Below are positions 9,027 through 25,131 of a stretch of 46,290 bases of DNA, piece after piece. The translations under genes and the position numbers were made by a program. Source of the DNA: Anaerolineae bacterium. Its GTDB lineage: Bacteria; Chloroflexota; Anaerolineae; CG2-30-64-16. The stretch's first letter is position 1, and every line of letters starts with the position of its first letter. The notes below the pieces were generated by a model, which was given only the letters and a program-made list of their open reading frames with translations, ran no database searches and was not told the origin of the DNA. Location: contig JALOOB010000013.1 of assembly GCA_025454635.1 (NCBI GenBank), positions 1-46,290 on the forward strand, in the 5' to 3' direction.

Positions 9027-12000
9027 CTATGCCCTCTCTGCGACTTCCTCGCCCTCCGTTACGCCCTCATTCTGCGCTTCGAGCTGCGCGACCTGCTCCA
9101 CGGGCGCGATGCGCCAGAAGAGCGGGAGGTGCGCATCCCACCCGTCGAGGATTTCACGCGCGCGCGGGCTGCCGGTGCGGTCGGCATGGCGTTCGAGCAA
9201 GTGACGCAACTCGGCGCGGTCCTCCGCGCGCTCGACGCGGCGCAGGGTGACAAGCTCCGTGTTGGCGCGGGCGGGCAGCGCGTCGTAACGGTCGTAGATG
9301 TAAGCGGCGCCGCCCGTCATGCCTGCGCCGAAGTTGCGGCCAGTCTTGCCGAGCACGACGACCACGCCGCCCGTCATATACTCGCACCCGTGATCGCCGA
9401 CACCCTCGACCACCGCGCGCGCGCCGGAGTTGCGCACCGCGAACCGCTCACCGGCGCGGCCCGCCGCGTACAACTCGCCCGCAGTGGCGCCGTAGAGCGC
9501 GGTATTGCCGAGGATGACGTTGTGATGCCAGACGTACTTCGCCTCGTCGGGTGGGCGAATCACGATCTCCCCGCCGGCAAGCCCCTTGCCCACATAGTCG
9601 TTTGCCTGCCCGGTCAGCCGGAGCGCGACCCCGTGGATGGTGAATGCGCCAAAGCTCTGCCCTGCGGTGCCGGTAAGGTTGACGACGATGGAATGCGGGG
9701 GAAGGCCCGCGTCACCGTGGACCGCCGCGATCGCGCCCGATAGCTTCGCGCCGACGGTGCGATCGGTGTTGCGGATTTCGTAGGCGAGGGAGATGGGAGA
9801 TTGAAGATTGAAGATTGAAGATGGCGCTTCTTCAATCTCCCATCTGCCATTTTCAATCTCCCATCTGCCAGTTTCAACTTCCGCCAGCGCGTCCTCAGCG
9901 AGGCGGTCACCCAGTTCGGAGTGGTGCAGGAGGCGATTGCGCTGCTCGGCGTTGCGCCGGGCGTAGCCGGTGTCGGGCGCCCACAGCAGCGGCGCGAGGT
10001 CCATCCCGCCCGCATCCGCGCCGACGACCTTCTGCTGGAGCAACTCCGCGTGGCCGATGATCTCGTCGAGCGAGGTCGCACCGAGCGCGGCCAGGATCTC
10101 CCGCACTTCCTCGGCCACGTGGGTGATGAAGGCCATGACGTGCTCGGCCTTGCCGGGGAACTTCTTGCGCAGGTCCTCCCGCTGCGTGGCGATACCCACG
10201 GGGCAGGTGTTGTTGTGGCAGGCGCGCGCCATCTTGCAGCCCGCGGCGACGAGCGCGGCCGTTCCAAACGAGAACTCGTCCGCGCCGAGCAAGGCCGCGA
10301 TGACCACGTCGCGCCCTGTCTTGAAGCCGCCGTCCACGCGGACCTTCACCCGGCCGCGGAGGCCGTTAACCAGGAGCGTCTGCTGCGTTTCGGCCAGCCC
10401 GACCTCCCACGGCGCGCCCGCGTTCTTGATCGACGAGAGCGGCGACGCGCCGGTGCCGCCGTTGTAGCCGCTGATGTGAACGACGTCCGCGCCGCCTTTC
10501 GTCACGCCGGCTGCGATCGTTCCGACGCCCGCCGCGGCCACCAGCTTCACCGAGATAGCCGCGGCAGGGTTGGCCTGCTTGAGATCGAAGATTAGCTGCG
10601 CAAGGTCCTCGATCGAGTAGATATCGTGGTGGGGCGGCGGCGAGATGAGCGCAACGCCAGGCGTGGTGTGACGGATGCGCGCGATCTCCGCGCTGACCTT
10701 GTGGCCGGGCAACTGCCCGCCTTCGCCCGGCTTGGAGCCCTGCGCCATCTTGATCTGCAGCTCTTCGGCCGACATGAGATAGGCGGGGGTGACGCCGAAC
10801 CGGCCCGACGCCACCTGTTTGATCTTGCTGTTGCGCTCGTCGCCGTAGCGCGCCGGGTCCTCGCCGCCTTCACCGCTGTTGGCCTTGCCGCCGAGCCGGT
10901 TCATCGCGATCGTGAGCACCTCATGCGCCTCCGCGCTGAGCGCGCCGTGCGACATGGCGGCGGAGGAAAAGCGGCGGAGGATGGTTTCGGCCGGCTCGAC
11001 CTCGTCAAGGGGAACAGGCGCGCGGCCGTTCGGGCTGAAGTCGAGCAGGTCGCGCAGCTCGACCGGCGCGCGTTCCTCGACCAGTCCGCGATACTTTTCC
11101 CACACGCCTGCATCGTTAGCGCCGGCCGGCCGTTTCCCGAGCCCGACGACGGCGTGCAGCGCGCTGACTACCTCCGGGCTGAATGCGTGCTGCTCGCCGC
11201 CGCGGCGGCTCTTGTAGAAGCCGTAGCTATCCAGCCTGGGCTCCGCGCCGTGGGAGCGCGGAAACGCGTTGCGGTGCCACTGGAGGACGTCGCGCGCGAG
11301 GTCTTCGTAGGTGATGCCGCCAACCCGGTAGTGGTCGGTCCCGGCAAAGGCCGCGTTGAGCAGTTCCTCGCTAATGCCGAGCGCCTCGAAGACCTGCGCG
11401 CCGCAGTACGCGTCGAGGGTGGCAATGCCCATTTTGGACATGACCTTAAGCACGCCCTTCTCGGCTGCCTTGGCGAAGTTGTGGCGCGCTGTGTCCGGGT
11501 CGATATCGGCGGCTTGCCGGCCGCCCTCGCTGACCATGTCCTCGACCGCAGCGTAGGCTAGCCACGGGTTGATCGCGTTGGCGCCGTATCCGAGCAGCGC
11601 GGCGAAATGGTGGACCTCGCGCGGCTCGCCGCTTTCAACGATGAGGCTGGCGCGCATGCGCTGCCCGGCGTCGATCAGGGCGTGATGGACTGCTGACGTT
11701 GCGAGCAGGGAGGGGAGGGGCGCGCGCTGGCTGCTGACCCCACGATCCGAGAGGATCAGCAGGGTTGCGCCGCTGACCACGGCGGCCACCGCTTGGGCGC
11801 AAACGCGCGCCACCGCGCGGCGGAGCCCGCTTACGCCTTCGCTGACCGGCCACGTCGTGTCGACACTGGCCGTGCTGAACCCGTCGAGCCGCGAGTCGCG
11901 CGCATGCCGCAGCGCCGCGCGGTCGGAAGGCAAGCCGATGCCAAGGTCGCCCCCGCGCTCGCCGAGCGAGCGCAGCGCGGCGACGTCGTCGTCGGAGAGG

Positions 12001-13769
12001 ATCGGGCTGGAGATTTCGAGCAGCCGCGCGGCGTCCGGTCCCTCGGTGAGATAGGCGCCGCGGCGGCCGAGCGCCTGGGAGAGGGACATCACCAAATCCT
12101 CGCGCAGCGGGTCGATGGGTGGGTTGGTGACTTCCGCAAAGCGCTGCTTGAAGAAGTGGAAGAGGGGCCGAGGCACGTCGGAGATGGCGGCCGCGGGTGT
12201 GTCGTCGCCCATGGAGCCGACCGGCTCGCGGCCGTCGCGCCACATCGGGCGGAGCACGACGAGCAACTCCTCGCGCGTGTAGCCGAATGCGGCCTGAAGC
12301 GCGGGGATGGAGATCAGCGGACGCGGCGCATCCTTTGCCGGCGGCCCGGAAGGCGCCCCGCCATTCCGCTCAGACGGCTCGACCGCTGCCGCGGGGAAGG
12401 CGCGATGGGACGCGTCGCGCTGCCACTTCACGTCGTCCAGCGTCACCAGGTTCGCATCAAGCCATTCGCCATACGGCTGCGCCTCGAAGAAACGCGCGAC
12501 GATGCTGGCGTCGTTTTCGATGCGGCCCGTCGTCGTGTCGACCGCGATCATCTCGCCGGGCCGCAGCCGGCCCTTCTGAACGACGCGCGCCTCGTCCACC
12601 TCGACCGCGCCGGCCTCCGACGAGACGATCACCACGCCGTCGTCCAGGATGACGAAGCGCGCGGGCCGCAAGCCGTTGCGGTCCAGCAGGCAGCCGGCGA
12701 CCGCGCCGTCGCTGAAGGTCAGCGCGGCAGGGCCATCCCACGGCTCTTGCAGGCAGCGGTGGTAGCGGTAGAACGCGCGCTGCTGCGGCGTTACATCACC
12801 GACGCGCTCCCATGCCTTTGGCACGAGCATCATCATGGCGTGGCGGATGTCGCGGCCCGACTGAACGAGCAGATCGAGCGCATTGTCGAACTTAGCCGAG
12901 TCGCTGCCGTGGGGGCCGATGACCGGCGCAAGCACGCCGGCTTCGTCGCCCCAGACGTTCGAGCAGCACAAGTCGGCCTCGCGCGCGCGCATCCAGGTGA
13001 GGTTGCCTTGCAGCGTGTTGATTTCGCCGTTGTGGCAGACCAGGCGGAACGGCTGCGCGCGCTCCCAGGTGGGGAAGGTGTTGGTGCTGTACCGCTGGTG
13101 GAACACGGCGATGGCGGTGCGGTAGTCCGGGTCGGACAGGTCGCAATAGAACTTCGACAACTGCGGCGCGACGAAGAGGCCCTTGTAGACGATCGTCTTG
13201 CTGGAGATAGAGGGCAAGTAGAAATTGGAGATGCTCTCGGCCCAGATGCGCTGCGTCGCGTGCTTGCGGACGAGGTAGAGCTTGCGCTCGAAGTCGGCGC
13301 CGGCGGCGATCCCGGCAGGGCGGGCGAGGATGATCTGCTCGATGTAGGGGCGGAGCGACTGGGCCCACTCGCCGAGCGCGTCGCCGTCGACGGGCACGTC
13401 GCGCCAGGCGATTTTCTCGATGCCGTACTCGCCGATCGTGTCCTCGAGGATTTTGCGCGCGCGTTCGCGGTGGGCGAGGTTGTAGCGCGGGAGAAAGACC
13501 ATGCCGACCGCGAGGTCGCCCGCGGCAGGCGTGAGGCGCTCGAGCGCTGCGAGGTCGCGGCCGATAATGTCGCGCGGCAGCTGGGTGAGGACGCCTGCGC
13601 CGTCGCCGCTCTTGCCGTCGGCCGCGACTGCGCCGCGATGCGCGTGGTTCTTGAGCGCGGTGAGCGCGGTCTCCAGGATGGCGTGGCTGGCCGCGCCGTC
13701 CTTCTGCGCGACAAAGCCCATGCCGCAGGCGTCGCGTTCGTGATGCGATTGATAGAGCGGATAATCCAT
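9027..13769 (-). CDS. gltB: Glutamate synthase large subunit (GltB/GlsF-type; amidotransferase, FMN and GXGXG domains). No gltD-like small subunit adjacent.
   Basis: 1580-aa ORF. N-terminal ...ERDACGMGFV (Ntn Cys), HQRYSTNTFP, FMN-domain and C-terminal beta-helix motifs (IRNTDRTVGAKLSG, GQSFGAF, GDHGCEYMTGG). Confidence 0.95.
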   Translation of the reverse strand: MDYPLYQSHHERDACGMGFVAQKDGAASHAILETALTALKNHAHRGAVAADGKSGDGAGVLTQLPRDIIGRDLAALERLTPAAGDLAVGMVFLPRYNLAHRERARKILEDTIGEYGIEKIAWRDVPVDGDALGEWAQSLRPYIEQIILARPAGIAAGADFERKLYLVRKHATQRIWAESISNFYLPSISSKTIVYKGLFVAPQLSKFYCDLSDPDYRTAIAVFHQRYSTNTFPTWERAQPFRLVCHNGEINTLQGNLTWMRAREADLCCSNVWGDEAGVLAPVIGPHGSDSAKFDNALDLLVQSGRDIRHAMMMLVPKAWERVGDVTPQQRAFYRYHRCLQEPWDGPAALTFSDGAVAGCLLDRNGLRPARFVILDDGVVIVSSEAGAVEVDEARVVQKGRLRPGEMIAVDTTTGRIENDASIVARFFEAQPYGEWLDANLVTLDDVKWQRDASHRAFPAAAVEPSERNGGAPSGPPAKDAPRPLISIPALQAAFGYTREELLVVLRPMWRDGREPVGSMGDDTPAAAISDVPRPLFHFFKQRFAEVTNPPIDPLREDLVMSLSQALGRRGAYLTEGPDAARLLEISSPILSDDDVAALRSLGERGGDLGIGLPSDRAALRHARDSRLDGFSTASVDTTWPVSEGVSGLRRAVARVCAQAVAAVVSGATLLILSDRGVSSQRAPLPSLLATSAVHHALIDAGQRMRASLIVESGEPREVHHFAALLGYGANAINPWLAYAAVEDMVSEGGRQAADIDPDTARHNFAKAAEKGVLKVMSKMGIATLDAYCGAQVFEALGISEELLNAAFAGTDHYRVGGITYEDLARDVLQWHRNAFPRSHGAEPRLDSYGFYKSRRGGEQHAFSPEVVSALHAVVGLGKRPAGANDAGVWEKYRGLVEERAPVELRDLLDFSPNGRAPVPLDEVEPAETILRRFSSAAMSHGALSAEAHEVLTIAMNRLGGKANSGEGGEDPARYGDERNSKIKQVASGRFGVTPAYLMSAEELQIKMAQGSKPGEGGQLPGHKVSAEIARIRHTTPGVALISPPPHHDIYSIEDLAQLIFDLKQANPAAAISVKLVAAAGVGTIAAGVTKGGADVVHISGYNGGTGASPLSSIKNAGAPWEVGLAETQQTLLVNGLRGRVKVRVDGGFKTGRDVVIAALLGADEFSFGTAALVAAGCKMARACHNNTCPVGIATQREDLRKKFPGKAEHVMAFITHVAEEVREILAALGATSLDEIIGHAELLQQKVVGADAGGMDLAPLLWAPDTGYARRNAEQRNRLLHHSELGDRLAEDALAEVETGRWEIENGRWEIEEAPSSIFNLQSPISLAYEIRNTDRTVGAKLSGAIAAVHGDAGLPPHSIVVNLTGTAGQSFGAFTIHGVALRLTGQANDYVGKGLAGGEIVIRPPDEAKYVWHHNVILGNTALYGATAGELYAAGRAGERFAVRNSGARAVVEGVGDHGCEYMTGGVVVVLGKTGRNFGAGMTGGAAYIYDRYDALPARANTELVTLRRVERAEDRAELRHLLERHADRTGSPRAREILDGWDAHLPLFWRIAPVEQVAQLEAQNEGVTEGEEVAERA
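9790..9875. repeat. Heptamer-phased palindromic element embedded in frame in gltB (encodes GRWEIENGRWEIEEAPSSIFNLQSP)
   Basis: Plus strand reads gggagat gggagat tgaagat tgaagat tgaagat ggcgctt | cttcaat ctcccat ctgccat tttcaat ctcccat ctgccag. Perfect 16-bp inverted repeat 9792-9807 / 9829-9844. Shares the core GAAGATTGAAG with the intergenic element at 23668-23741. Confidence 0.8.
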
Positions 13770-14799: not shown

Positions 14800-14869
14800 G
14801 CCACGAATGACACGAATTAGACGAATTTCACGAATTCGAGTAATTTGGGTCATTCGTGAAATTCGTGGC
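14800..14869. repeat. AT-rich palindromic intercistronic element made of eight phased 9-mers (gccacgaat gacacgaat tagacgaat ttcacgaat tcgagtaat ttgggtcat tcgtgaaat tcgtggc)
   Basis: Lies in the aroKB stop / aroQ start spacer. Arms ACGAATTTCACGAAT / ATTCGTGAAATTCGT are perfectly complementary. Outer pair GCCACGAAT / ATTCGTGGC. Confidence 0.8.
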
Positions 14870-20294: not shown

Positions 20295-20370
20295 GCAGAT
20301 GACGCAGATGGGGTGGATCAGCATAATCTTGATCGAGATCGTGTCGATCCGCCTTATCTGCGTTATCTGC
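20295..20370. repeat. AT-rich palindromic intercistronic element (9-nt phased, ...GAT units), homologous to the element at 22533-22629
   Basis: Arms gcagatgacgcagatggggtggatc (20295-20319) / gatccgccttatctgcgttatctgc (20346-20370), 21 of 25 complementary. Begins 3 nt after the aroA stop. Confidence 0.8.
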
Positions 20371-22639: not shown

Positions 22640-23653
22640 TCAGAGTGTCCTTCCAACTGCGAGCGCGAGCTGCTTCAGTTCGCGCACGAGCGCAGCAAAC
22701 TTTTCCGGCTTGAGCGACTGCGCGCCGTCAGACATGGCCTGCGCCGGATTGGGATGCACCTCGATCATCAGGCCGTCGGCGCCCGCGGCGATGCACGCCC
22801 GCGCGGTCGGCGCGATCAGCTCCCACTTGCCCGTGCCGTGGCTCGGGTCGCCGAAGATGGGCAGGTGCGTCCATTGCTTCATCAGGGCGATGCCGTTGAT
22901 GTCAAGTGTGTTTCGGGTGGCCGTCTCGAACGTGCGGATGCCGCGCTCGCAGACCATCACCTGCCGGTTGCCGCCGCTCAGCACATACTCGGCAGCCATC
23001 AATGTCTCCTGCACGGTCGCCATCATGCTGCGCTTAAGGAAGACGGGCGTGCGTGTCTTGCCGACCGAGAGCAGCAGCGCGAAGTTTTGCATGTTGCGCG
23101 CGCCGATCTGGAACACATCGGTGTACTTGCCCACGAGCGGCACGGCCTCGGGCGACATGACCTCGGTGATGATGGGCAGGCCGCTCTCCTCGCGCGCCTC
23201 GGCGAGCATCTCCAGCCCGTCCTCACCCAACCCCTGGAAGGAGTAGGGGGAGGAGCGCGGTTTGAACGCGCCGCCGCGCAGGAGGTCGGCGCCCGCTTCC
23301 TTGACCGCGCACGCGGTCTCGATGAGCATGGCGCGACTCTCGACCGAGCACGGGCCGGCGATCATCGTGATTTTCGGGCCGCCGACTTCGACCCCGCGCA
23401 CGTCGATCACGGTGTTCTCGGGGTGGAAGTCGCGGCTCGCCAGTTTGAACGGCTGGAGGATGCGGACGACCTGCTCCACGCCCGCGAGCATTTCGAAATT
23501 GTGGGACTGGACCGGGCGGTCGTCTCCGACGACGCCGATGATAGTGCGCTCGGTGCCCTGCGACAGGTGCGCCTTGTAGCCCAGCGTTTCGACCTGCTGG
23601 ACGACGGTGTCGATCTCGGCCGCGGTGGCCGAGCGTTTCATGACGACAATCAT
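22640..23653 (-). CDS. aroF: Type I-beta DAHP synthase with N-terminal ferredoxin-like regulatory domain
   Basis: AAGGAG 7 nt before the [36 protein letters not shown] (regulatory domain), then [39 protein letters not shown]. Confidence 0.9.
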
Positions 23654-23667
23654 GTGTGACTCCTTTA

Positions 23668-23741
23668 GAAATCGAAGATTGCAAATTGAAGATTGAAGGT
23701 GGCCCGCCGATTTTCAATCTTCACTCCCCAATCTTCAATAT
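23668..23741. repeat. Heptamer-phased AT-rich palindromic intercistronic element (GAAGATT/AATCTTC units)
   Basis: gaagatt gcaaatt gaagatt gaaggtg gcccgcc gattttc aatcttc actcccc aatcttc aatatct. Perfect 11-bp pair 23687-23697 / 23713-23723 and 8-bp pair 23674-23681 / 23729-23736. Confidence 0.8.
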
Positions 23742-24989
23742 CTACTCGTTTGCCGCGGGGTAACTGCCAAGCAGCTTCAGGAACGCGGTGCGCGTCAGCA
23801 GGCCGAGCAGCGCGCGGTTGATCGTCGCGTCCTGCCAGTGGCCTTCCAGGTCGACGTAGAAGACATAGTGCCACGGGCGGTTGCGCCGTGGGCGGCTCTC
23901 GATTTTGGTCAGGTTGATGCTGCGCGTCGCCAGCTCGCCGAGCACGTGGTAAAGCGCGCCTGGCGTGTGCATCGTGGCGAAAACGATGCTGGTCTTGTTG
24001 ACCTTTGCGGGGGGCGGCTCCTCCCGGCCGAGCAGGAAGAAGCGAGTGGTGTTATCCGGCGAGTCCTCGATGCCGGCGTCGAGCACTTCCAGGCCGTAGG
24101 TTTCGGCGGCTAGCGCGCTGGCAATGGCGGCCGTGCCGGGCTGCGGATCGGCGGCAAGGTCTTTCGCTGCGCCCGCGGTGTCATAGGCGACGATGGCTTC
24201 CCACCCACGCGTGCGGAGGTACCGTTCGCACTGGGCGAGGGCCTGGTAGTGCGAATGGACGCGCTTGATTTCGGACTGCTTCGTTCCCGACGGAGCGAGC
24301 AGGCAGTGGCGCACGCGGAGCTTGACCTCGCCCACGACGCGCAGGTCGTGGTCAAGGAGCAGGTCGAATGCCTGGTTGATCGAGCCTGCCTGCGAGTTTT
24401 CCACCGGCAGCAAGCCGAGGGTGGCCGTGCCGTCCTCGACCGCGCGGAAAACGTCCTCGAACGTAGCGCACGGCACGGTGTTCACCTGACGGCCGAAGTG
24501 CTGGAAGATGGCTTCCTGCGAGTAGGCGCCCGGCTCGCCCTGGAAGGCGACCGTGCGCGGTGACTCGACGCGCGCCTTGCCGTTGCTCTTGGGCTCCTCA
24601 ACGACCGGCGGCTCAATGGGCGTGAACTCGGAGCCGATGTCCGGGCGGAGCGCGACCGCGCCCCGCAGGTAGATGTGGCGCACGTCGTAGATGGGGCGCT
24701 CAGTGTTCCAGTGGATGAGCGTGCGGACCGTGCGCGGCAAGCCCTCGTTGGTCTCAATTTCGACCGCGGAGAGCAGGGGGACGTGATGCCAGCCGAACTC
24801 GCGCGCGGCGCGGGCCGGGAACGCGGCGTTGAGGTCAGGCGTGACGGTGAAGATGGCGCTCGCGACATCCTCCGGGCTGACCCCGTTCGCCGTGACGATC
24901 GCAGCGAGCAGTTCCTGGGTGGCGGTGAGAATTTCCTCGACGGTGTTGGCGGCCACGGTGGTGGCCCCGCGGATGCCTCGAACGGCCAT
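23742..24989 (-). CDS. pheA: Fusion of AroH-class chorismate mutase with prephenate dehydratase and ACT domain
   Basis: GGAGGAG 3 nt before the ATG at 24989. [12 protein letters not shown]...[20 protein letters not shown] resembles B. subtilis AroH. Then [15 protein letters not shown]...TRFF...ESRP (PDT plus ACT). Confidence 0.9.
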
Positions 24990-25040
24990 GATCTCCTCCA
25001 GATGTAGGTCGGGGGTCACGCTCACCACCAAGAACCCAAG

Positions 25041-25105
25041 ACATTAAGTTTCACGAAGCTTGCTAAGCCCTTAGTGAACCTTTGGTTCATTGATTCTTAG
25101 TGGTG
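25041..25105. repeat. Weaker AT-rich repeat-containing spacer (CTTAGTG/GCTAAG units, tgaacc-ttt-ggttca hairpin) between the attenuator and pheA
   Basis: cttagtg occurs twice, its near-complement gctaag occurs once, and there is a small hairpin. Less regular than the other elements. Confidence 0.3.
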
Positions 25106-25131
25106 ACCGGCTCCTTCCGGCGACGGACAAT

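Follow-up and report, generated by a model that had tools for sequence, protein, structure and literature searches.

The glutamate synthase gene gltB on a 46,290-bp contig of an Anaerolineae metagenome-assembled genome (MAG), the whole of which was analysed and is here called the window, contains an in-frame, heptamer-phased inverted repeat that belongs to a dispersed class of hairpins built from heptamer arrays and is probably a tolerated, translated passenger. The element consists of two mirrored arrays of 7-nt units, belongs to the same family as an intergenic hairpin 14 kb away on the contig, is absent from the GltB proteins of unrelated lineages and recurs, together with a recognisable peptide module, in other genes and other phyla.

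The heptamer-phased element within gltB

GltB carries the Pfam domains GATase_2, Glu_syn_central, Glu_synthase and GXGXG (Pfam search with the exact protein), is identical to MCU0507136.1 ('Anaerolineae bacterium'), and its C-terminal 457 residues match the solved GltB structure 1EA0 with an E-value of 1e-123. The element is in frame and without a stop codon, with conserved domains on either side; across residues 1299-1330 the coding strand reads ETGRWEIENGRWEIEEAPSSIFNLQSPISLAY, and the conserved ISLAYEIRNTDRTVGAKLSG, at which the GXGXG domain starts, follows directly. The insert peptide, ETGRWEIENGRWEIEEAPSSIFNLQSP, adds about 20-25 residues (a net gain of about 19-21 over unrelated homologs) and immediately precedes the first strand of the C-terminal GXGXG beta-helix, so that open reading frame (ORF), translation and Pfam match confirm the placement proposed in a first-pass annotation of this DNA. 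Tryptic peptides predicted from the insert are WEIENGR and WEIEEAPSSIFNLQSPISLAYEIR.

On the plus strand, positions 9788-9822 read GGGAGAT twice and TGAAGAT three times and are followed by an 8-nt centre. A 21-nt direct repeat, with units at 9831-9851 and 9852-9872 that are 95% identical, indicates a tandem duplication within the gltB copy, and Tandem Repeats Finder (TRF) gives a period of 7 for 9791-9824 and for 9835-9870, and one of 21 for 9831-9877 (96% matches); the period-7 self-identity of one arm is 0.88. The 7-nt phasing with its 21-nt period was one of the first-pass claims and is borne out by TRF and by the direct-repeat comparison, as is a second, the perfect 16-bp inverted repeat (Table 1), by its recovery here; the longest arms measure 35 nt (83%; 9788-9822 and 9835-9869). 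The element had also been called AT-richer than its surroundings, and its GC content does drop to 0.41 (80-nt windows), the flanks being at 0.65-0.79 and the whole window at 0.664. Its coding strand is predicted to form a single long hairpin (RNA, -48.5 kcal/mol, z = -5.85; DNA, z = -6.1), which is more stable than every shuffle. Each strand holds only two GGG tracts, and the main unit, TGAAGAT, has no G-tract. The sequence of the apical loop, GAAGCGCCA, encodes E-A-P and matches the [D/E]AP of homologs: the L004 homolog has GAAGCGCCG (E-A-P) beside the strand, and distant homologs have DAP or EAP. On this resemblance the loop may derive from the ancestral [D/E]-A-P that abuts the beta-strand in homologs, and thus be of host origin.

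AlphaFold, applied to the C-terminal 457 residues (mean pLDDT 81), models the insert as an extension of the preceding helix, followed by coil, which fits a protruding, disordered excursion. The surface loop suggested in the first-pass annotation is therefore matched in its modelled shape and position before the strand, but at low confidence, the pLDDT being under 50 over fragment residues 187-195, which immediately precede the strand ISLAYEI. Searches of Rfam found no family at its gathering score across the whole window; relaxed thresholds gave sub-threshold matches only, nearly all of them to models of eukaryotic microRNA precursors, as for a generic long hairpin. A match of the Xanthomonas sRNA-Xcc1 model to 9791-9874, far below threshold (18.6 bits; gathering score 53), is probably meaningless and is of note only in that convergent heptamer repeats have been described in Xanthomonas. 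A weak sigma-70-like match also lies inside the element (9877-9849, minus strand: TTGAAA, 17 nt, GAAAAT; 9 of 12 positions); units of the TTGAAG type resemble the -35 hexamer, so that such arrays could yield promoter-like sites by chance.

The same DNA, junctions included, is found on two other NCBI contigs or assemblies, and the identical peptide on three JGI metagenome contigs; with the same DNA or peptide on five other contigs, the element does not stem from faulty assembly. Among 60 aligned homologs, the more distant ones, about 45 in number, have only a short loop of the type ...LAxLxA-NP-DAP-VRL..., and the solved GltB structures 1EA0 and 6S6S show a gap at the insert position. Since both unrelated lineages and solved structures have the short loop, the alignment identifies the segment as an insertion and not an ancestral loop. 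The closest relatives compared at the site (66-83% identity) are varied. P0012 (locus L002) holds a different heptamer hairpin, TTCAACC x4 opposite degenerate GGTTGCA/GGTTCCA units, which ends at the same codon boundary (RNA fold z = -3.05). An insert of like length, GC-rich and unstructured, is present in P0001, P0002, P0003 and P0044, and when the GC-rich inserts of relatives were tested as remaining hairpins no structure was found (z = -1.2, 0.0 and +0.7). P0004 and P0045 have shorter GC-rich loops, and P0005-P0007 have no insert. An E-G-R motif in several of these inserts recalls the E-N-G-R of the window, and from this motif the GC-rich inserts could possibly be decayed versions of such an element.

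Several further loci were encountered in this comparison. On the ENA contig L001 (1558-6414) the orthologous gltB is called as five consecutive ORFs, likely through frameshift errors or because it is a pseudogene, and its insert region is GC-rich and unstructured. L195 (1-545) was considered as an empty-site comparator and rejected: downstream, in the beta-helix region, it is 90% identical to the GltB of the window, but its gltB ends precisely where the insertion would join. Upstream of this break the contig has an IS630-like ORF (HTH_23/29/32) and an unrelated hairpin whose 14-bp arms are perfect, AGACCTGACGGGTC TTCGA GACCCGTCAGGTCT (z = -6.4); this 1.4-kb contig may reflect a rearrangement, as at a hot spot, or a chimera. 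A metagenome scan with the GltB C-terminus for closer relatives gave, among the matches listed, only sequences of at most 61% identity, and those loci became the control set used below.

A dispersed class of heptamer-array hairpins

The first-pass annotation had noted a core shared with an intergenic element at about 23668-23741, as well as the peptide SIFNLQS on translation of that element, and both observations hold. The core, GAAGATTGAAG, occurs six times in the window when up to one mismatch is allowed, always in the gltB element or at 23666-23744; the mean in shuffles is 0.35, and none of 100 shuffles reached six. Translation of 23666-23744 on the minus strand yields SIFNLQS. This sibling hairpin fills the spacer from the stop codon of the gene at 23742-25031 (minus strand) to the ribosome-binding site of the gene at 22640-23653 (minus strand), and two further hairpins of like architecture, built from other units, are present on the contig (Table 1), all three occupying spacers between co-directional genes. 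A different kind of AT-rich structured segment lies at 25010-25120, just upstream of the gene ending at 25031; its outer stem, CACCACTAAGAA / TTCTTGGTGGTG, is long, its arms are not periodic, and its minus-strand RNA fold has z = -5.1.

Related copies are numerous in other genomes. Using one genome per species and the single pattern TTGAAGATTGAAG-N5-30-TTCAATCT, we found more than 104 matching genomic stretches, against about 7 expected by chance on a uniform-composition estimate. Nearly all matches are extended periodic hairpins of the form (GATTxxx)n, loop, (xxxAATC)n, and the class architecture can be written as (GAAGATT)n, a loop that is unique to each copy, and a mirrored (AATCTTC)n. About half of the 80 records listed are in Chloroflexota (Anaerolineae, Caldilineaceae, Chloroflexia, Roseiflexaceae and Ardenticatenaceae), and the others include Gemmatimonadales, Acidobacteriota, Planctomycetota, Bacteroidota, Desulfobacterota, CPR bacteria and one cyanobacterium. 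In the 820 kb made up of the match loci, the window and the loci of the gltB relatives there are 105 periodic-arm hairpins, 93 of them with period 7, versus 6 in 501 kb of unselected control gltB loci, where three of the six fall in one locus. Phage carriage left no sign, the pattern being present in only 4 viral contigs.

Loop and order of unit variants are individual to each copy, and a variant in one arm tends to be mirrored in the opposite arm; even the seven copies of a single MAG (CALFEW01) are all distinct in both respects. Between species, orthologous copies are conserved about as well as their own flanks. The arrays also have a polarity, since in the selected loci the purine-rich array is 5' in 29 array pairs and in none is the order opposite, and over 91 period-7 hairpins purines make up a fraction of 0.66 of the left arm but 0.34 of the right. 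In the selected genomes, the GAAGATT-type heptamer dominates the other hairpins near each match (about 48 of 67). Further unit families recur across several genomes, for example GGAGACT and CACGAAG, and units of the GGGAGAT type, as in gltB, are also found in L090. A single genome can hold several unit families. In a soil contig whose GltB is 61% identical (L116, 384-2396), three heptamer hairpins of three unit families (GACGAAx, GAGGACT and GGGGATG) lie within 2 kb. As to gene context, 20 copies are tandem (between co-directional genes), 4 convergent, 3 divergent and 7 in-gene, counts that are rough because they come from an overlap-based ORF and GC3 heuristic; the gltB copy belongs to the intragenic minority.

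In-frame copies in other genes and the 21-nt phasing

At least six further GAAGATT-type copies lie in frame in five genes that were verified by translation and by Pfam matches on both sides of the insert (Table 1). They have a peptide module in common, LKIE[DN]...SSIFNLQS, and the ENGRWEIE...SSIFNLQS of GltB is plainly the same module. The AMP-ligase gene (L085, 4280-5941) contains two more repeat-like stretches, HNSQFTIHNYQ and NSEQSVHNSQFIIHNSQF, which suggest further in-frame inserts of another unit type.

The units themselves bear on how such copies can be translated. The codons of (TTCAATC)n are TTC, TCA, CAA, AAT, ATC, TCT and CTT, with no stop in any of the three frames, and, 7 and 3 being coprime, all frames give one and the same cyclic peptide, FNLQSSI. 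The purine-rich (GATTGAA)n, on the other hand, contains one TGA per 21 nt in each frame, so that an in-frame copy needs every third purine-arm unit to be altered, which produces a three-unit (21-nt) super-repeat. At the TGA-prone position (unit AGATTGA), gltB has AAATGGC (Asn-Gly), the purB copies have AATGGA, and other copies have TGG, TAC or TCA. In the coding copies regularity is lower in the purine arm than in the pyrimidine arm (0.59 versus 0.74), a trend only at n = 7, whereas the other 67 copies are symmetric (0.68 versus 0.68).

The purB copies provide an allelic series. The site FDEI/GG/LxxYKEF is empty in 94 of 120 homologs from rumen Bacteroidaceae (P0140-P0259), P0147 among them, and the empty site already contains GATTGGA. 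Filled sites include alleles that differ by exactly 7 residues, that is 21 nt (P0140, P0143 and P0160), as well as a GTGAAGA/TCTTCAC variant (P0208) and unrelated small palindromes (P0201); in L197 the arms are very unequal. This loop of adenylosuccinate lyase (loci L035, L097 and L196-L199) behaves as an insertion hot spot, some of its alleles holding small-palindrome pairs (CTCTCCCTTAAAGGGAGAG), and a second purB site carries inserts too.

Table 1. The gltB element and its parts, other hairpins of the window, and in-frame copies in other genes
Feature	Position	Strand	Description
gltB, glutamate synthase large subunit	9027..13769	minus	1580 aa, intact; ORF and translation
Whole heptamer-phased inverted repeat	9788..9877	minus	In frame in gltB; encodes approximately residues 1299-1327 (ETGRWEIENGRWEIEEAPSSIFNLQSPIS)
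5' purine-rich arm	9831..9872	minus	GGCAGAT GGGAGAT TGAAAAT / GGCAGAT GGGAGAT TGAAGAA, giving GRWEIEN GRWEIEE
Apical loop of the predicted hairpin	9822..9828	minus	AGCGCCA on the coding strand, within codons E-A-P; minimum-free-energy structure
3' pyrimidine-rich arm	9788..9821	minus	ATCTTCA x3, then ATCTCCC x2, giving SSIFNLQSPIS
Perfect 16-bp inverted repeat	9792-9807 / 9829-9844		Inside a 20-nt pair, 95% complementary
Sibling intergenic hairpin	23666..23744		GAAGATT/AATCTTC units; RNA fold z = -5.12
Hairpin of like architecture	14800..14869		Unit CACGAAT, period 9; between co-directional minus-strand genes; RNA fold z = -5.59
Hairpin of like architecture	20295..20370		GCAGAT-type units, period 9; between co-directional minus-strand genes; RNA fold z = -4.99
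DEAD-box helicase			In-frame GAAGATT-type insert; QKIEDSRLSTQSSIFNP
purB			Two in-frame GAAGATT-type copies; one reads EIENGRLKIENGDANPQSSIFNLQS
glyQS			In-frame GAAGATT-type copy; linker of fused GlyQS
AMP-ligase			In-frame GAAGATT-type copy; hinge
CapD-like enzyme			In-frame GAAGATT-type copy
fmt			In-frame hairpin of another unit family; Fmt linker

Origin of the element and known repeats

The explanation that we favour, with reasonable confidence, is that of a passenger: in this Anaerolineae lineage the element would have entered, or grown within, a variable linker before the first beta-helix strand of GltB, and the ribosome would read through it, the mRNA hairpin being a side effect. Its persistence would depend on a site that tolerates insertions, on a pyrimidine arm that is free of stops in every frame, and on a purine arm in which the one heptamer in three that would place TGA in frame has been altered, giving the 21-nt super-period; its length may then change by slippage in steps of three heptamers. 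The insert most likely has no role in catalysis and is presumably selfish or neutral, and the gltB copy is probably harmless. Dispersal, as opposed to independent local birth, is indicated by the same unit elsewhere in the contig, by the dominance of one unit family per genome and by the presence of the module in unrelated genes. The element nevertheless does not behave like a classical mobile element, to judge from the unique loops, the lack of near-identical copies among those examined, the lack of a visible target duplication and the host-like junctions and loop. The mobile or expanding palindromic repeat envisaged in the first-pass annotation is supported in its core: dispersal and expansion with the frame kept in 21-nt steps agree with the purB alleles and with the tandem 21-mer of gltB, but transposon-type mobility finds no counterpart in the copies examined.

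More tentatively, and with more doubt than belief, it might be proposed that the GAAGATT-type hairpins and their sister types form a distinct, previously undescribed cross-phylum class that is made or spread by a dedicated process, and that writes one peptide module (...LKIE[DN]/WEIEN...SSIFNLQS...) into housekeeping enzymes at hot-spot loops. Such a process may construct a pair of mirrored heptamer arrays on either side of a short host stretch, which would become the loop; mirrored arrays around a loop that appears host-derived are an architecture unlike that of known transposons. The class and its recurrent peptide module in housekeeping proteins across phyla seem to be undescribed, and a literature search by exact 14-mers and by the peptide found no paper with either.

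Several points weigh against the passenger reading or limit it. Both junctions of the gltB element and its loop resemble host sequence (GAAGTTGAA, ATCTCCC and GAAGCGCC), and so strong a predicted hairpin, placed where two domains meet, could itself have some effect. No empty gltB site was found among alleles closer than about 83% identity, so that the exact DNA boundaries and any target duplication cannot be defined. Neither near-identical donor copies nor a transposase were seen among the copies examined, and entry is thereby inseparable from growth in place; by eye no target-site duplication flanks the copies, a weak negative because periodic arms blur the boundaries. To these may be added the low confidence of the modelled insert, the single pattern behind the genome scan, the heuristic gene-context counts and the small number of coding copies behind the arm asymmetry.

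The main rival, which we consider unlikely, is a purely local origin, in which a chance proto-repeat in the ancestral loop (GAAGTTGAA / GATCTSCC or ATCTCCC) expanded by slipped-strand mispairing and fold-back template switching made the palindrome, the likeness to other loci being convergence on slippage-prone, stop-free heptamers. The host-like junctions and loop are what such an origin predicts, and it would account as well for the individual loop and unit order in every copy of every genome without near-identical copies, for arms as unequal as those of L197, for the GATTGGA of the empty purB site and for the 21-nt tandem duplication inside gltB. However, independent seeds are not expected to converge on a single unit within a genome, and yet the gltB heptamer recurs 14 kb away on the contig and dominates the other hairpins near the matches in the selected genomes, while one peptide module recurs in unrelated genes and phyla.

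It is less probable still that the element is maintained as a functional nucleic-acid structure, be it a ribosome pause that aids folding where the FMN domain meets the beta-helix, an RNase or mRNA-stability site, or an internal promoter. The great stability of the hairpin (z about -6) would suit such a role, as would the position of four of the eight in-frame copies at inter-domain linkers (gltB, glyQS, fmt and the AMP-ligase hinge), the way in which the intergenic siblings fill operon spacers like stabilisers of the REP (repetitive extragenic palindromic) type, and the promoter-like match in the element. The nearest relatives, however, keep gltB without structured RNA at the site, and in coding copies the purine arm erodes and pairing weakens; moreover, linkers are also simply the places that tolerate insertions, and the promoter-like sequence is a weak match to the consensus. 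A lineage-specific loop selected at the protein level, for example as a subunit contact, with the repetitive DNA incidental, is very improbable: some extra residues at this position in all the closest relatives and the E-G-R motif common to several of them would be expected, but the insert sequence differs wholly between relatives, the same DNA units occupy non-coding spacers, the same peptide occurs in unrelated enzymes and the AlphaFold model has no confident structure there. Finally, an artefact of assembly or sequencing (a chimeric junction or a collapsed repeat), conceivable in that short AT-rich palindromes are hard to assemble, can be set aside in view of the five contigs with the same DNA or peptide, the intact reading frame and the conserved sequence on both sides.

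The closest precedent is found in Xanthomonas, in convergent heptamer repeats of the type GGGNATC. Rehm et al. (2015; PMC4692102) described heptameric repeats, GGGNATC and GGGGA(C/T)T, that vary in copy number and occur in Xanthomonas and Nostoc; Xanthomonas has 70-75 convergent array pairs per genome, close enough together to give inverted repeats, which lie mostly between aligned ORFs, near stop and start codons, with 7-11% intragenic, and which the authors read as G-quadruplex formers. The hairpins described here are likewise convergent pairs of purine-rich tandem heptamers with a similar spread of gene contexts, but their unit is GAAGATT, with GGGAGAT variants, and with fewer than four G-tracts the G-quadruplex reading does not apply. 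Neither repeated in-frame colonisation of conserved enzymes nor a recognisable peptide module is described in that report, and the present class, in contrast to the GGGNATC type, is distributed, as found here, over many phyla and is centred on Chloroflexota. Rickettsia palindromic elements (RPE), named as a precedent in the first-pass annotation, are analogous in behaviour but not the same family: they are small palindromic repeats that insert in frame into unrelated housekeeping genes without destroying the protein (Ogata et al., 2000; reviewed in PMC10969869), as the present element does in conserved protein-coding genes, but they form families of about 100-150 bp, conserved in sequence over the whole element and limited to Rickettsia. 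Our copies, by contrast, share heptamer units only, with unique loops, tandem-array arms and a length of about 85-90 nt, and their hosts are an Anaerolineae MAG and members of many other phyla.

REP sequences, with bacterial interspersed mosaic elements (BIME) and REPINs, are short, abundant, hairpin-forming extragenic palindromes in operon spacers, for which roles as mRNA stabilisers or transcription terminators have been proposed; the REP units measure 20-40 bp, are conserved in sequence within a genome, carry a GTAG or CGTC head and are linked to the gene of a REP-associated tyrosine transposase (RAYT), which mobilises these elements. The present hairpins resemble them in occupying operon spacers, but have periodic arms, no conserved unit beyond the heptamers and no such head that is evident; a RAYT gene was not searched for. 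At 9781-9784 a GTAG occurs, which is the opposite-strand reading of gltB's conserved Ala-Tyr codon pair. Like MITEs, the miniature transposable elements with inverted repeats, the hairpins are small, non-autonomous and occasionally fused in frame to ORFs, but MITEs have terminal inverted repeats, target-site duplications and a conserved interior, whereas here each copy has a loop of its own and no duplicated target was observed. The short tandemly repeated repetitive (STRR) heptanucleotide repeats of cyanobacteria are dispersed intergenic tandem arrays of heptamers. Similarly, TAACTGA repeats occur across distant lineages, with 169 direct sets and one indirect (MacGregor, 2015; PMC4679880). 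Dispersed intergenic heptamer arrays shared by distant lineages are thus common to these systems and ours, but the former are essentially direct arrays and not mirrored hairpins, and no in-frame inserts in conserved enzymes have been reported for them.

If the explanation that we favour is correct, one simple repeat class moulds operon spacers as well as the sequences of essential proteins in several phyla, Chloroflexota being the most visible case, and is a source, recognisable from sequence, of loops that conserved enzymes have in particular lineages only. With time the repeat character of such a loop may fade, which the GC-rich inserts in related GltB proteins suggest. The class also raises the question of how mirrored heptamer arrays with unique loops and no marks of transposition originate and disperse, a question that the purB allelic series of rumen Bacteroidaceae makes testable with existing data. 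Furthermore, the class would account for some odd low-complexity segments and spurious ORFs in protein databases, and annotators and structure predictors should be cautious with segments that are repeat-derived. Two attempts to count proteins with the peptide module were abandoned, short low-complexity queries being unsuited to the purpose: a 68-residue composite query gave 11 candidates, and an exhaustive search with the 30-residue insert gave 16 weak matches, mostly spurious ORFs of translated heptamer arrays. Among public protein ORF calls, P0121-P0123, P0124-P0126, P0130 and P0137 are pure translated heptamer arrays or hairpins, such as (GRWEMGD)n, (GRWKMED)n and RLKIEN..., and are probably spurious genes.

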